The translations under genes and the position numbers were made by a program. From Prorocentrum cordatum (taxonomy: Eukaryota): DNA of 54,101 nt. The notes beneath the pieces were generated by a model. That model was not told the DNA's origin, made no database searches, and saw only the letters and a list, made by a program, of their open reading frames with translations. Of this stretch, positions 19,680 to 25,499 are shown piece after piece (the first letter of the stretch is position 1; each line of letters begins with the position of its first letter). The stretch spans positions 62,001 to 116,101 of the forward strand of contig CAUYUJ010000263.1 of NCBI GenBank assembly GCA_963575745.1, written 5' to 3'.

Positions 19680-19830
19680 CAGGGGCTTCCCTTTGAGCAA
19701 CTACGACGTTGCTCAGATTGGCCCCCACCCCCCCCCGCATCGCGGCCGCTCCCCTTTCCCGAAGGGAGCTGCCCAGGCGCTCCTGCCCCCCTCCCTTTCC
19801 CGGCGCATCCAGGTGCGACCCCCCCCCTCC
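19680..19830 (+). repeat. Dispersed repeat; copies at ~27615-27745 and ~28398-28505
   Basis: ggggcttc...cgacgttgctcagattggc...cccgaagggagctgccc(a/g)ggcgctcc in all three. Two copies are followed downstream by cgcc(a/g)aaagggtcggcggattt (~20275, ~28628). Confidence 0.85.
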
Positions 19831-20193
19831 CCCCCCCCCCCTTCTCGCCAACGACCCACCCGTGACCCACCGACGACCCGCCAGCGGCGACCCACCCAGC
19901 GACGCTGACAGCGGTGGTTCTATGAAGTATTGGCGCCTGTCGGCGGAGGACGATGAGGCGGAGGACGAGGAGGAGGAGGAGGAGGAGGACTTGGAGGAAG
20001 AAGAGGATGAGCAGGAGGAGGAAAGAGGAAGAGGAGGAGGAGGACGACGAAAAGGAAAATAACGAGGACGATGACGAGGAGGAGAAGGAGGATGAGGAGG
20101 AGGAGGAGGAGGAGGAGGAGGAGGACCCCCAACCAAGGCAGAATGGCATTCTCCCTAGGGAGGGGTTACGATTTCCTCAGGACCCTCCCCCCG

Positions 20194-20226
<33 letters not shown>

Positions 20227-20339
20227 TGCCCCCCCTGCCCAGGACCCCTCCCCATGCAGACCCCCCCCCTCATACGCCAAAAGGGTCGGCGGATTTTGGT
20301 CGCGAGCTTTCGTCGACCAACATTGCAGTTGAGAGCGAC

Positions 20340-20349
20340 TTGGCTCAAG
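20340..20349 (+). other. Partial SL relict upstream of the Ub-HET-LRR gene
   Basis: TTGGCTCAAG equals the last 10 nt of the dinoflagellate SL. The match is short and could be chance. Confidence 0.35.
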
Positions 20350-20574
20350 CAGCGCCCTCGGCGAAGCCTCACGCGACCCCACGCCCCGGCGTGCACCGTG
20401 ATCCTCTCGCAGGGCGCCCAGCCCGCTCGCCGCGCACCGGCGACGGCCCCACAGGTGCTGAAGAATGAGCTCCCGCAGGTCGACGGCCTGAAGGAGGAGG
20501 GCGGCAGCTTGGCGGAGGCTGCGGTGCCACGCCTCTGCGGCTCGCCAGAGCGCAGGCTGCACACCCTGGCTGGC

Positions 20575-22690
20575 ATGTGCGGCGGCGGGCTGGGGGAGGG
20601 GACGCCGCCTGAGATGCCGTCCCGCTCCGCCGCCTCGGCCGAGGTCAGGATCGAGGCCAGCGCCCACGTGGCGCAGACGGACAGGACCTTCCAGCAGCCT
20701 CTCCAGATCTTCGTCAAGACCCTGGCTGGAGAGACGATCACGTTGCACAAAGTGATGCCGACAGAGCGCATTGAAAGTGTGAAGGCGCTCATTCGGCACA
20801 AGGAAGGCATTCCTTGCGAGATGCAGCGTCTCGTCTACAGTGGAAGGCAGCTTGAAGATGGACGTGCACTTGGCGACTACAACATCACGACAGAGTCCAC
20901 GCTGTTCGTAACTTCCGTTCTGGTTGGAGGTGTGCAGACCGGGGGCGCCAGCGCGTCTTCCGAGAGCGGGGAGACGGGCGCACGGGCGGCTTCCCCGCGC
21001 ACGTCCGCCGTCAGCTCGTTCGCGGGATTGTGCTCCTGCCTCCGAGGCCGCCAGCTGGGAACGGTTGGCGTCGCCGAGGCGCAGGCTCCCGCCGAGGACG
21101 CCAACGAGGAGCCCATCGACCCCAGCCAGTTCACGGACGCCGCGAGCCTGTTCGACGCGCTGGCGTGCACCGTGCAGGGCCTGCACCCCGTGCGCCTGGT
21201 CCGCATGTCGTGGCTGCTGCAGCAGCGCGGCACGGTGCTGAAGCGGCGCCAGGATCGAGGCCTCCTAGACGGGGTCGGAGCAGATGGGGTCGGAGGATCG
21301 CGCCGCATCGCCGATGCATCGCCGATGCGGCTCGATGCGGAGCCCGATTTTCTTCACGCGGACGTCGCCGATGCATCGCCGACGTCGACGTTGCATCGCC
21401 AGTGCATCGCCAGTGCATCGCCGATGCATCGCCGATGTATCGCCGATGCGGCGCGATCCTCCGACCCCATCTACTCCGAGCCCATCTAGGAGGCCTCTAC
21501 AGGAGCTGCCCGAGGAGGCGTTCGTACCTGCAGGGGAGCTCCGGCAAGTCTGGGAAGCTGGCGGGCGAGGAGGCCGAGACAAGGTGGCACCCATCATCAC
21601 CATCTCCTTCTGCTGGGATACACGAGACCACCCCGACCCCACGGGGAAACAGCTGGAGTTGGTGATCGATACTCTGGAGAAGGAGCGCCACAAGTACGCC
21701 GCACTCAGGTTGGGCTTCCCGGGGTTCACCGAGATGGGGATCTTCTGGGACTGGCCCTCGCTGCTGCAGGGTGACCCTGACAAGGCCGAGGCAGCGAAGA
21801 AAGCGGCACTGCAGGAGGGTAAAAGCGACAAAGAGGCCGAGGACGCCGCGGACAAGGCCAAGCGCACGCCCGCCGAAAAAGCTGCGTTCAAGCATGCGCT
21901 CCACAAGACCATGGATCTGTGGTATGCCCATCAGGGCACCACAGTCTTCCTCCTGACGCAGCACCCCCAGGACCGAGGCAGCACGCGCGAGTGCGGGTAC
22001 GACCAGTCGGGCTGGACGACGTACGAGCGGTGCTCCACCGAGCAGATCAAGAATGTGCATCGGCATGTGGCGAAATGGAGCGCCGTGGCCGACCTGGGGC
22101 AGGGAGCGGGAGCCAGGGCGGCGGGCAGGAAGTGGCCGGTGGGCCCCGACGAGTTCGACCGGCTCATCGAGGGCAAGACCTTCACGAATGGCTCGGACCG
22201 CGAGACGGTGAAGCAGATCTTCCGCCGGATGAGCCGCGTGCAATTGGGCAGCGTGACGGAGCTGGCCTTCGACGGGATGAAAGGACCCCTGAGCCCCGAC
22301 GAGGCGGCGGGCCTCGGCGGCTGCCTGCGCCTGTGCGCCCGCCTGGAGAGGCTGAACATGAGCGATTGCGAGATCGGCCCCGCGGGCGGCGAGGCACTTG
22401 CGGCTGCGTTGCCCTCGCTGACCGCCCTGCAACACCTGGTCCTGGACAACAATGCCCTGGGCGAGGTGGGCGGCCAGGCCATTGCGGCCGTGCTGCCCTC
22501 GCTGCCCGCCTTGAGGGTGCTGATTTTGCAGGGCAACGACATCGGCGAGGGGGTGAAGGCCATTGGCGCAGTGCTGCCCTCGATGCCCGCCCTGACGGAG
22601 CTGTATCTGGGCGTCAACAACATCGGCGACGGGGCGAAGGCGGAGCTGCGGGCCGCGTGCGAGGCGCGCCGCGTGCGTCTGAATATCTGA
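20575..22690 (+). CDS. Ubiquitin-like domain + HET/TIR-like domain + RI-type leucine-rich-repeat protein; exons 20575-21252 and 21503-22690 (621 aa if this ATG is used)
   Basis: Ubiquitin fold [14 protein letters not shown]...[34 protein letters not shown]...LVGG (20701-20931). HET-like motifs [35 protein letters not shown]. About 28-aa LRRs from ~22250. The true start is uncertain; candidate acceptors at ~20454 and ~20478 suggest possible upstream exons. Confidence 0.85.
21253..21502 (+). mobile_element. Introner-like element forming a 250-nt phase-0 GA-AG intron (TIR element 21255-21499, TSD CAGGA)
   Basis: About 70-bp TIRs. CAGGA at 21250-21254 and 21500-21504. Splicing cag|GA...tacAG|gag restores [11 protein letters not shown]. 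Confidence 0.85.
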
Positions 22691-25499
22691 GCCGGTGACG
22701 GCGGCCGAGGGCCGCCGGGGGCCACGCGTTTTGTTTCTCTTCTCCTCCCCCCCCTCCTGGCAAATCCTGCACCAACGTTGTTGGAGCCCCGCGCACGTGC
22801 CCCCCCGCCAAGAGGCTCGGCACTGAACCGGTTGCCTCGTATGTGAGCTTCTCAGGGACTCATTCTTTCCTCGCGCATCATCCCTCATGCATTTCGCTCC
22901 CCACGCGGCCAACCTTAATACCGACTGAGCCACTCAGCCTCAGCGACAGAAGGAGGATGCAGGAGGAGAAAGGGGAGGGGAAGAAGACGGGGGAATGAGG
23001 CAGGAAGGAGGAGGGAGGAGGAGGAACAGCAGGAGGAGAAGGAAAGAAGAGAGAAGAAGAAGGAGGAGGAAGGAAGAGCGAGGACAGAGGAGGAGGAGGA
23101 GGAGGAGGAGGAGGAGGAGGACGACGACGAAACATAGTTCCCCCTCTCTGCTTTCTGTTTCGGCTCTCCTCCTGGTCCTCCTCTCTTTCGCTCCATCCTT
23201 CTCCTGTGTTCTCATTGCTCTCCTGTCTTCTCCTTTTCTGTTCCTCCGCTTTTCGCGGTTCCTCCTATTCCTTTTTAGTTGTTCCTTCCTCTTGTTGCGT
23301 CTTTGCTGCCATTGTTGCTGCTATGATGCCTGATGCCCCTCTTCCTCTTGCCTCTCCTCCATGTTCTACCTTTGAGGGAGCTTCGATTCTCCCGAACGGC
23401 CTGTTATCCAGCAGAGGAGTCAGTGGAGTCCCGAGTCCTGAGTCCAGGGAGAGCCCGGAGGACTCCAGAGTCCGGGGGTCCAGGAGTTCGGAGCCCAGAA
23501 GGGGCCCAGACCCCGAGGAGTTCAGTCCAGGAGCTCGGAGTCCGGGGGGGGGGGGGGAGGGATGACGGAGAGGAGCCGAGAGCCCAGGATTGCAGGAATG
23601 TTTGCCATCGCTCACTGCCTGGCCTGCCCGCTTCTGCTCCAGGGCTAGGCGACTAGGCGGGAGCGGCAGCGGCGCCAGCGGCGCCCGCGTAGAGAATGTC
23701 GTAGGCCGCCTGCACCCTGTCGTTTTTCAACGACTGATCCGTGAGCAGCTTCTCCAGGTCGTTCATTGCTCGACGGCGCTGCAACAAGACCAGCTTCTTG
23801 AACCCCACCGTCTTTGGTCCGCTCGGCAGGCACGAAGCTGCCGCGAACCACCCAGGCGGCACATACATAATCTCGCCTGCCTTGATCGTCGTGACGAAGC
23901 AGTTCACCTTCCCTGAAATGAACTCCTTGGCCTTGTCAGCCTCGATGCTTTTCAAGAGCGTCGTCGCCCGCTCGAGGAATGTCGTGCCCTGGACGTGTGG
24001 AACTTGATCCATGAGCTGGCCGCCGTGGAAGTAGACCACCTTCATGCTGCCCTCAACGATGTACTTCACAGAGCCTAAAAGCTCCGCCTCGAAACTCATG
24101 TCCACGTAATTAGGTCGGGAGGTAGCCGATGAACCAGACCCGCTCCGTGGCCGCCTGCACCACGGGGTGCTTCGTGATGTCCGCACGCTGCGCCAACGGC
24201 GCCAGCTTCTCGAAGATCGACACGACTCGCGCGAGGCCATGCGATTCCTGCACGGGCGCCGAAGCTTTGTCCCCCCTCTGGCCCGCCTGAGCTGGGAACT
24301 TCACTTTGTACCTGTCGAGGCCCGCTTTGATCTCTGGCGCCGCGCAGGCTGCAGCACCGGCGGAGCTCGCCAGCAGCTTGAAGGGGATGTCCAGCATCTC
24401 TTTCGACTCCGAGCCCTCAAGCTGTTTCTCGAAAGCCGCCTCATCATGGTAAGTTTTGACCGCCTCACAACCAAGGCTAGACAAGTCGATCGCAAAGACG
24501 CCAGACGAAAGACTCCTTGGGGAGCTCCAAACTGCATCCGTAAATCAAGCATCTTCCCTCCTCACTCTCTTCTCCATTGCCCTCTTGGGGCTGAGGTTTG
24601 AAGAGAGCGGCGAGGGATAGGCTTGATTGGCGGGTGCAGTTGGGAATTCCGAGCTCCTCAGCGAAGTGATCTGCTTTCTCAAGCTCGCCGAGGCCGCTGA
24701 AGCTGCGGCCAGCTGATCCTCCCTGGCCTTGCTCTCCTGCTCCATCTGCTTGGCCGCCGCCTTCCTTGAGACCGTGCTGTGGGATGTCTTCGCAACCTTG
24801 GCAATGTCGACGATGGCCTTGCGGAGCTGCTCAAGGTTGATCTTGAAGTCCTCGATCTTCGCTTCGGTGCCCTCGATCTCCTTAGCGGTGGTCGCAGTAC
24901 GGATCTGCTGTGAGAGCTCCATCACGCGTGCCATACGAACGATCTGGTCCCTGTCGTCAACGGGCAACAGGACTGCTGCATGAAGTTTCAAGTGGAGTTA
25001 GTGGTCGCGATACTTGCCAAGGTCCAACAAGTGCTCAGGGAACTCGATGTTGTCCTCTGTCTTCCCCTCCTTGATGCATTCTTCCTTGAACGCTTGCTTG
25101 TCCTTGGTGAACAGCTCGTCCATCCCCAGGTCGGAGTCAGTGACGGTGCTGCTGCTCTCATCGTAGTCGAACTTCTTGTCGAGGACGAGGCTGCCAAGCA
25201 AAATCCGTTCCCGCAAGAGCGACATCTGCTCATTGTCTGCGCTGGGGCAAGTGGCGCTTGTCTTGCCAGCTGCTGCCAAAGCTTTGAACAGCTTGGTCTC
25301 CTCTTGACCCAAAGCCTTCTTCTGCGTCTCTGCGACCGTGAGCCTGGTGATGCCGACGTCGAAGCGGGCCTGGCCAACTGCAGCCTGCCCGCGGCCCCCG
25401 GCGAGCTTCGCCTTTGGCGCCGACCCATCACTTCCTTGAGATGCCTCACCAGTGCTGGTCTTGTCCGTTGCTGCTTGTGGTCTGACCCCGTGCGTCATC

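Follow-up and report, generated by a model that had tools for sequence, protein, structure and literature searches.

The 54,101-nucleotide stretch of Prorocentrum cordatum DNA analysed here (the window; positions 62,001 to 116,101 of contig CAUYUJ010000263.1, assembly GCA_963575745.1) carries on its forward strand an expressed gene of two coding exons. Its 621-residue product joins a ubiquitin-like (UBL) domain to a conserved domain of about 300 residues and a carboxyl-terminal array of RI-type leucine-rich repeats (LRRs) (Table 1). Two long plus-strand open reading frames (ORFs) in different frames, 20071-21489 and 21284-22690, underlie the gene; the coding frame moves from 1 to 2 across a 250-nucleotide intron and the joined protein reads RRQ/ELPEE (here and below a slash within a peptide marks a junction). 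The initial annotation, made from the sequence alone, had assumed that the ubiquitin exon lies on the same mRNA as the central domain and the LRRs, and this was borne out. Three of four RNA runs (X9, X1 and X5) gave contigs with the spliced joint from 21249 to 21500, in which 250 nucleotides are skipped and 5 are ambiguous. X9 is a polyA RNA library, and run X14 had no contig over the joint. A transcript protein of 621 residues from a 2290-nucleotide JGI contig (P0003) is 99% identical to the window product and has the same exon join. The spliced RNA contigs rule out a chimeric or mis-assembled gene model.

Public databases already contain the gene, uncharacterised. The NCBI entry P0230 ("unnamed protein product [Prorocentrum cordatum]") is identical to the window product, has the same RRQ/ELPEE junction and belongs to the product's 90% cluster; UniRef names it "Ubiquitin-like domain-containing protein". 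The P0230 model begins 82 codons 5' of the ATG at 20575 and is probably over-extended: a start at 20329 is unlikely, as the window has a codon other than ATG there and no RNA contig reaches it. RNA contig depth was nil at 20000-20302, and the region 20343-20600 holds only two ATGs, that at 20465 (out of frame) and that at 20575. The latter is the first in-frame ATG inside the RNA-contig span, and P0003 begins at the same Met. In the 5' leader an X9 contig skips 32 nucleotides at 20439-20472 (GC..CT), which looks like an indel between strains and not an intron.

Table 1 Features of the gene and its transcript (window coordinates)
Feature	Position	Strand	Basis or remark
Gene	20575..22690	+	two coding exons, expressed; RNA contigs and matching transcript protein
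mRNA, approximate extent	20343..22951	+	RNA-run contigs start at 20343-20377 and end at 22904-22951
Upstream ORF	20465..20491	+	8 codons, ATG...TGA, in the 5' leader; read from the sequence
Coding exon A	20575..21252	+	42-residue N-terminal stretch, UBL, linker and first ~46 residues of the central domain
UBL domain	20701..20931	+	77 residues ending LVGG; PF00240 and alignment to ubiquitin
Linker	20932..21114	+	low confidence; pLDDT <50 for model residues 1-175
Central domain, N-terminal part (exon A)	21115..21252	+	alignment A2 begins at P0003 residue 181; pLDDT >85 from ~180
Intron	21253..21502	+	250 nucleotides, GA..AG; contig joint and P0003/P0230 junction
Inverted-repeat element	21257..21497	.	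arms 21257-21328 and 21426-21497, 72 nucleotides each, 92% complementary
Central domain, main part (exon B)	21503..22276	+	to P0003 residue 484; profile matches over positions 2-292
GWTTYE motif	22010..22027	+	start of the helix after the third core strand
RI-type LRRs, about five	22277..22687	+	LRR_6/LRR_4 matches and modelled strand/helix units
Stop codon TGA	22688..22690	+	

The UBL domain, which is preceded by 42 residues, matched PF00240 with an E value of 1.8e-18 (66.5 bits, cut-off 25.4) over profile positions 1-67 of 72, and Rad60-SLD also matched the exon-A ORF (E 1.1e-7). Its residues 1-77 align with ubiquitin 1-76 over the full length (E 1.6e-23 against 76-residue chains), with about 47 of 76 positions (~62%) identical as counted by eye on the match line. 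The codons of the two terminal glycines lie at 20926-20931. A ubiquitin-like domain closing on an intact LVGG and followed by a linker, as first described, is therefore present. K6, K27, K33, L8, L73 and G75-G76 of ubiquitin are retained, and K48R, K63T, K29L, I44V, H68F, V70T, R72V and R74V are replaced; position 11 is E in the window protein and K in P0003. Bona fide ubiquitin has K48, K63 and the tail LRLRGG with R72 and R74, whereas here the tail reads VLVGG. The domain is thus a ubiquitin-derived UBL and not ubiquitin itself, and it would hardly be conjugatable with the replacements K48R, K63T, R72V and R74V. We presume such a tail to be unlike the usual substrate of housekeeping deubiquitinases, and since residues 72 and 74 are both Val we give cleavage of the UBL in this protein no more than an even chance. 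In all four RNA runs contigs of other transcripts match 30 nucleotides at 20684-20714, which encode the ubiquitin start QIFVKT, and then diverge; presumably these are other ubiquitin genes.

The linker begins VQTGG (AQTGG in P0003), which places a second di-glycine right after LVGG (20932-20946) in what we take to be a SUMO-type C-terminal motif, QTGG. LVGG and QTGG are unchanged in both alleles and the flanking residues differ. Further along, the linker aligns with the MGCCMASRQ amino termini of paralogs that have no ubiquitin part (29-sequence alignment A1, columns 157-200). The ancestral Met-Gly start is now Ala-Gly in the window protein; the old start Gly sits 34 residues 3' of LVGG, and the residue directly after the GG is Val.

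At the carboxyl end PF13516 (LRR_6) matched with an E value of 4.1e-11 (42.5 bits, cut-off 23.4) and LRR_4 with 1.6e-7. An AlphaFold model built from the 29-sequence alignment, with a predicted local distance difference test score (pLDDT) mostly over 85 between residues ~180 and 621, has alternating strand/helix units at 479-620 (pLDDT >90), with strands about every 28 residues (509-511, 537-539, 565-567, 592-594 and 618-620). Both the above-threshold match and the spacing agree with the RI-type repeats of the initial annotation. Its statement that the protein carries no NACHT or NB-ARC domain also held: neither of these, nor HET or TIR, gave a Pfam match at E<=1 in the window ORFs.

The central domain belongs to a large family. 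A search with the exon-B protein gave 88 relatives at E<=1e-3, including dozens of P. cordatum paralogs (62-75% identity), proteins of Emiliania huxleyi and Prymnesium polylepis and an MMETSP transcript; the remainder were unnamed marine sequences. A profile of 16 trimmed central-domain sequences (A2), searched against 1.84 billion representatives with clusters at 50% identity, matched 3739 clusters at E<=1e-3, of which 1993 reach <=1e-10 and 326 reach <=1e-30. GWTTYE in the window protein is its form of the family's hallmark, GWxxxE. In the 29 sequences G396 and W397 are invariant and E401 is conserved in at least 90%; G216, W217 and E221 are invariant in the set of 16, and GWxxxE recurs in the majority consensus of 96 more distant members and is invariant among intact ones. 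Further invariant or nearly invariant positions (P0003 numbering) are S261, W264, P270-D271-P272, F307-W308-D309, Q315, M363-D364-L365-W366-Y367-A368-H369, W437-P438 and F453-T454-N455. The ESM Atlas returned only unnamed or LRR-named haptophyte clusters with scores <=0.86, and gave no usable match when LRR families were skipped and named clusters alone were considered. In a prokaryote scan the patterns matched 45 stretches, none of which encodes a relative. A viral scan gave a single 26-residue match whose E value of 8e-4 is relative to the candidates only, and this was not counted as a relative. By these searches the domain defines a very large haptophyte/dinoflagellate family that has no name in Pfam, NCBIfam or PADLOC.

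The other parts of these proteins are informative. Among 35 long relatives, 27 have LRR families, with the central domain N-terminal to the LRRs. Two of the 35 contain NACHT: P0153, in which the central domain is at the amino terminus and is followed by LRRs and then NACHT (613-766), and P0213, with the central domain at 241-506 and NACHT at 1173-1322. P0225 (1605 residues) likewise carries NACHT. NACHT or NB-ARC, the mark of NLR/STAND proteins, is thus found in these three relatives (as NACHT) and is absent from the window protein. Another two long relatives, P0184 and P0185, have N-terminal EF-hands. Among 70 members that have no ubiquitin part and whose amino termini are apparently complete, 30 start with MG, and 27 of these fit MGxxx[STAGCN], typically as MGCxxSK or MGCCMAS. 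We read the MGC... start as an N-myristoylation/palmitoylation signal.

The model of the central domain has an alpha/beta order: strand 257-261, helix 275-292, strand 305-307, helices 318-368, strand 373-376, helix 396-408, strand 421-423 and helices 441-448 and 459-476, after which the LRRs begin. GW and E401 lie at the N-terminus of helix 396-408, which follows the third core strand (373-376). A domain-only model (mean pLDDT 77.9) was compared by VIA-align with 48161 representative chains; the counts below refer to the best 50 rows, and a Z below 8 may reflect merely a common arrangement. The best Z was 5.2 and all matches were weak, covering model residues ~62-258. TIR or SEFIR was named in 12 of these rows (Z 3.6-4.8, 99-111 residues aligned, root-mean-square deviation (rmsd) 3.4-4.5), for example IL-1RAcPb (Z 4.8, 106 aligned, rmsd 3.5), SpbK (4.7) and SARM1 (4.4, 104 aligned, rmsd 3.4), and nucleoside 2'-deoxyribosyltransferases filled another seven (Z 4.1-4.9). 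Other rows were ThsB, a STING-TIR fusion, the IL-17R/ACT1 assembly, LOG, DprA, MilB and YpsA, which we take to be of the same Rossmann-like group. When VIA-align re-ranked the list returned by Foldseek, the SPARTA TIR chain (residues 2-110) came top with a Z of 4.7 and the runner-up had 3.4. These fold matches are a consistent hint at a TIR-type fold in the model, not proof of one.

The position of the motif points the same way. TIR domains carry WxxxE on the C-helix, and the Glu is needed for NADase activity according to bioRxiv 10.1101/2023.05.19.541320; judged by position in the predicted model, the family-wide GWxxxE is placed where TIR domains have WxxxE. TIR NADases (SARM1, plant TNL TIRs, AbTir/ThsB/SPARTA) are the best, though weak, structural matches of the central domain, and they share with this family the co-occurrence with NACHT and LRRs and, as placed by the predicted model, probably the W-x-x-x-E at the C-helix position. 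They differ in that no hidden Markov model (HMM) match links the two, the Z is only 4-5, and the N-terminal (RYT...VRL...) and C-terminal (WPxGPDDF...FTNGxD) extensions of the central domain have no TIR counterpart. The preprint 10.64898/2026.09.21.753143 (TeTIR) describes TIR-like NADase domains that are extended, measure 200-350 residues, contain inserted helices and lie upstream of NACHT. There the RWG loop of the TeTIR of TEP1 is in the BB-loop region, whereas GW here precedes the helix after strand 3.

HET domains are the second point of comparison. Fungal HET proteins (PF06985, including HET-NACHT-WD NLRs) likewise have an N-terminal effector-type alpha/beta domain of 150-300 residues, which occurs alone, with recognition domains or before NACHT, in large variable paralog families as here. 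The order of the HET motifs, SYxW...WIDxxCINQ...IYxxA...RGWTLQE, would resemble the SFCW...FWDWxSLxQ...DLWYAH...SGWTTYE of this family. The HET model has only 146 positions, and the domain of the window family is about twice as long, with a helical insert of 40-70 residues. In addition fungal HET NLRs carry WD repeats (HNWD in PMC4986451 and HET-D/E/R in PMC10890737), whereas the partner here is the RI-type LRR. Homologues of HET beyond the fungi, among them some in Haptophyceae, are reported, as is a remote homology of HET with TIR up to helix C (PMC4986451; PMC10890737). No member of the window family that was scanned reached any score with PF06985. Hence the "HET-like domain with a GWTTYE motif" of the initial annotation is half sustained: the motif is there and the HET label found no match. 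Since HMMER filters discard most weak matches, remote homology to HET is compatible with this null result.

UBL fusion is not confined to the window lineage. The best match of the A2 profile, P0091, has an N-terminal PF00240 domain (E 3.8e-7) that is only 29% identical to the window UBL over 48 residues. It ends HLAMRGRGG, with R72 and R74 retained, and GCGNSKGSVQP follows directly. A search with the first 125 residues of P0091 showed this cassette to be common to five proteins, P0091, P0226, P0227, P0228 and P0229. P0226, whose N-terminal region is 81% identical to that of P0091, has the junction RGFGG/GCGNSK and an effector domain that belongs to the family but has diverged within it (hhalign probability 99.8%). 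P0227 and P0228 have RGRGG/GAG(T/A)GK. P0229 has RGRGG/APSY, and its cassette is followed by an ADP-ribosyltransferase (ART) domain (PF01129, E 2.4e-5, 24.2 bits, cut-off 22.3; ADPrib_exo_Tox, E 1.3e-3); its carboxyl terminus resembles RI-type repeats by eye, with no Pfam LRR match there. Where their first 125 residues align, the UBL-plus-linker cassettes of P0091, P0226 and P0229 share 78-81% identity. Exon shuffling or a shared 5' exon is suggested, because a near-identical cassette heads distant paralogs and an ART protein; the cassette thus seems to have moved between different effectors.

A maximum-likelihood tree of 131 domain rows, from which 22 near-identical cluster members had been dropped, put the window type among MGCC... 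paralogs inside a Prorocentrum clade (SH-aLRT 100). P0051, which has no ubiquitin part and starts MGCANSKAVQP, is the sister of the P0091 type (99), and P0226 falls in a distant clade (97). By the tree and the low identity of the two UBLs, the two UBL fusions are independent. In the P0091 lineage the UBL takes the exact place of Met1 in the predicted lipid-anchor signal, because P0091 reads GG/GCGNSK... where its sister starts MGCANSK.... The haptophyte-type cassette may be a removable cap, as suggested by the RGRGG end of the UBL right before the myristoylation signal and by the presence of the same cassette at the head of an ART protein. The proposal in the initial annotation that the window protein is controlled by ubiquitin removal gains indirect support from these relatives, since their UBL ends in RGRGG before a myristoylation signal. 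Natural ubiquitin fusions (ubiquitin-ribosomal protein) and UBL proteins have the same N-terminal ubiquitin fold, C-terminal Gly-Gly and polypeptide directly after it. Unlike them, the window protein has a ubiquitin unit preceded by 42 residues, without K48, K63, R72 and R74, and fused to an effector-LRR protein, and the Gly that follows GG in the P0091 lineage belongs to a predicted myristoylation signal. Protease-dependent post-translational N-myristoylation exists, for example in caspase-cleaved proteins. Cleavage in P0091 and P0226 would likewise expose an internal Gly of the N-myristoyltransferase-type consensus GCGNSK; the protease here would be a deubiquitinase acting on a built-in UBL, which is not evident for the window protein. 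A literature search found no natural ubiquitin fusion exposing a myristoyl-Gly, which does not prove that none exists.

These data support the view that the central domain behaves like an effector slot, because it is N-terminal to LRRs, occurs with NACHT in some relatives and is replaced by ART behind the sister UBL cassette. The effector-sensor protein first envisaged for the locus is therefore upheld as an architecture (LRRs in 27 of 35 long relatives, NACHT in some), and HET/TIR family membership went undetected by HMMER. Our best explanation, which we hold tentatively and at rather less than even confidence, is a UBL-capped TIR/HET-like effector-LRR protein with the UBL as a regulatory cap. 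The product would be a cytosolic protein of three modules: the UBL with its di-Gly, the ~300-residue alpha/beta domain and five RI-type LRRs. The central domain would act as an effector or in signalling, as an extended TIR/HET-like domain in the class of Rossmann-like N-glycosidases, and Glu401 (22025-22027) is the candidate catalytic residue; within the overall explanation this is the most likely identity of the effector on the predicted model, and it falls just short of an even chance. The LRRs would be the sensor or autoinhibitor of the central domain, as the architecture suggests, and the family would be an NLR-less "effector-LRR" module of innate-immune type, usually lipid-anchored through its MGC... 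amino terminus. The UBL would have been gained independently in this lineage from a true ubiquitin unit, and its removal at LVGG or QTGG, or its recognition as a UBL, would control the localisation or stability of the effector-LRR part. We favour a regulatory cap because UBL fusions recur independently and the sister cassette replaces Met1 exactly.

Several observations weigh against this explanation. No named Pfam family covered the central domain in 29 members at E<=10, in 35 at E<=0.01 or in 4 at E<=10. HET, TIR and any other named model for the domain were also absent among the 25 families listed, of 48, for the 96 further members, and no TIR-family HMM match was found in any member scanned with Pfam or among the PADLOC models. 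The 16 domain sequences had no meaningful match in PADLOC or NCBIfam either. The sole PDB profile match of A2, succinate-semialdehyde dehydrogenase over 40 residues (E 0.028), was judged to be chance. Foldseek gave no match of the central-domain model in the PDB at E<=0.001, and its top rows (ORC, CYPOR and ArsA) had TM values below 0.2. The structural comparison with TIR put forward in the initial annotation thus had a divided outcome, as TIR is the commonest theme among the weak VIA-align matches. VIA-align Z values of 4-5 are below the level treated as convincing, and halves of GT-B glycosyltransferases (Z 3.7-4.7) and the LOG/DprA folds score nearly equal. On the side of the cap, the UBL fusion is rare, being carried by 2 of 160 Pfam-scanned family members, and the cap-to-myristoyl logic of the P0091 lineage seems to have no direct transfer to the window protein: cleavage after LVGG would leave the old Gly unexposed because it lies 34 residues downstream.

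The structural part of these objections could be met by another Rossmann-like module, a nucleotide-sugar or other nucleotide-binding enzyme or a non-catalytic scaffold, with the protein serving ordinary membrane-proximal signalling or trafficking through LRR contacts and not NAD+ chemistry. We consider this unlikely, although it is the strongest of the competing explanations. It would account for the weakness of all fold matches (Z<=5.2, none from Foldseek at the threshold above), for the GT-B halves (FUT8 Z 4.7, glycogen synthase 4.0, NodZ 3.8) and LOG/DprA that stand beside the TIRs, and for the lack of an HMM link to HET/TIR in the members scanned, and the EF-hand fusions of P0184 and P0185 together with the lipid-anchor signals suit general signalling. 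Against it, TIR and nucleoside 2'-deoxyribosyltransferase rows lead two independent structural rankings, the W-x-x-x-E at the helix after strand 3 is invariant, the central domain is found with NACHT, and an NAD-using ART fills the same slot behind the same UBL cassette. The paralog expansion is also very large, which is usual for immune-type families.

A different doubt concerns the ubiquitin part, which might have no regulatory meaning and be an accidental 5' fusion, clipped co-translationally or a decaying passenger. The rarity of the UBL among the scanned members, the confinement of the fusion to one young branch of the Prorocentrum clade, the loss of the conjugation residues (K48R, K63T, R72V, R74V) and the decay of the former Met-Gly start to Ala-Gly would all fit this. 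So would the differences from the P0003-like contig of run X9: 18 of 678 nucleotides differ in exon A and 6 of 1188 in exon B, and all three differences within the UBL (20731, 20791 and 20882) change the residue (E/K, I/V and N/S). However, the UBL reading frame is intact, expressed and retained in two alleles or strains and in several runs, and in both alleles the di-Gly and QTGG stay the same where the residues beside them differ. Moreover, in another lineage an unrelated UBL became joined, as a separate event, both to this family and to an ART protein, which argues that the combination was selected. We regard a meaningless ubiquitin part as improbable, more so than another Rossmann-like module.

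The UBL might instead be an integrated decoy, as the initial annotation had also suggested, with a deubiquitinase or Ulp-type protease of a pathogen cutting at LVGG or QTGG and so releasing or activating the effector-LRR part. Two tandem di-Gly motifs, LVGG and then V/A-QTGG, are kept in both alleles; the ubiquitin body is still 62% ubiquitin-like although housekeeping enzymes would probably find its tail a poor substrate, and the context is immune-like. No pathogen protease for this host was found in the literature searched, and the P0091-type junction is more simply host processing that regenerates a myristoylatable Gly. Such a decoy would be very improbable, by far the least credible of the explanations considered.

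Returning to the UBL as regulatory cap, a bolder form of it can be drawn from the relatives, which we put forward only as a long shot. UBL caps would be protease-removable masks on an algal family of TIR/HET-like effector-LRR proteins, membrane targeting would be gated by a deubiquitinase, and the Prorocentrum gene would be an independent reinvention. In the haptophyte-type lineage deubiquitinase cleavage at RGRGG/GCGNSK would expose the Gly needed by N-myristoyltransferase, and the occurrence of one UBL cassette before a divergent paralog and before an ADP-ribosyltransferase would define a modular "UBL-effector-LRR" architecture.

The sole intron of the gene is introner-like. Of six possible cuts only 21253-21502 has an AG acceptor, and its donor is GA. 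An inverted-repeat element makes up nearly the whole intron, its arms beginning 4 nucleotides inside each intron end, and contains 11-nucleotide tandem units (GCATCGCCGAT-like). On either side the element is bordered by the direct repeat CAGGA, which equals the 5 ambiguous letters at the contig joint. No further copy of the element was found within the window. For P. cordatum, PMC10666404 describes G-A donors and introner elements that have an inverted repeat at either end and a 3-5-nucleotide direct repeat. The window intron has the same terminal inverted repeats, short direct repeat and G-A donor as these dinoflagellate elements; that paper searched for inverted repeats of 8-20 nucleotides, and the arms here are longer, 72 nucleotides.

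The flanks of the gene (19700-20330 and 22880-23330) consist of simple purine/pyrimidine-rich repeats that in several frames translate into stretches of E, R, P, S or L, and these yield long spurious ORFs on both strands. On the minus strand, 23653-24484 contains two ORFs of ordinary-looking protein sequence, which may be exons of a neighbouring gene; neither had a Pfam match at E<=0.001. Pfam scans of 25 neighbouring window ORFs gave only sub-threshold low-complexity matches, and by tblastn the window has this gene only once.

Taken singly, the parts are of known kinds, namely a UBL, LRRs, an introner and what is probably a TIR-like fold. What appears to be undescribed is how large and coherent the GWxxxE family is, how often it carries a lipid-anchor signal, the UBL cap that recurs, including its GG/G-C-x-x-S-K junction, and the UBL-ART sibling; a literature search found no paper on the GWxxxE family, although one may exist. 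Blooms in the ocean are driven by haptophytes and dinoflagellates, which viruses and parasites kill, and the cell-autonomous defence proteins of these algae are almost unknown. The locus points to a family of several thousand clusters built as an effector plus an LRR sensor, sometimes with NACHT. If cleavage after Gly-Gly exposes a myristoylation site, deubiquitinase activity would be coupled to membrane recruitment, a coupling that our literature search did not find. Should the GWxxxE domain prove to be an enzyme of TIR/HET type, NAD-based immune signalling would reach two more major eukaryotic lineages, and the HET-TIR link would gain a third, testable branch.

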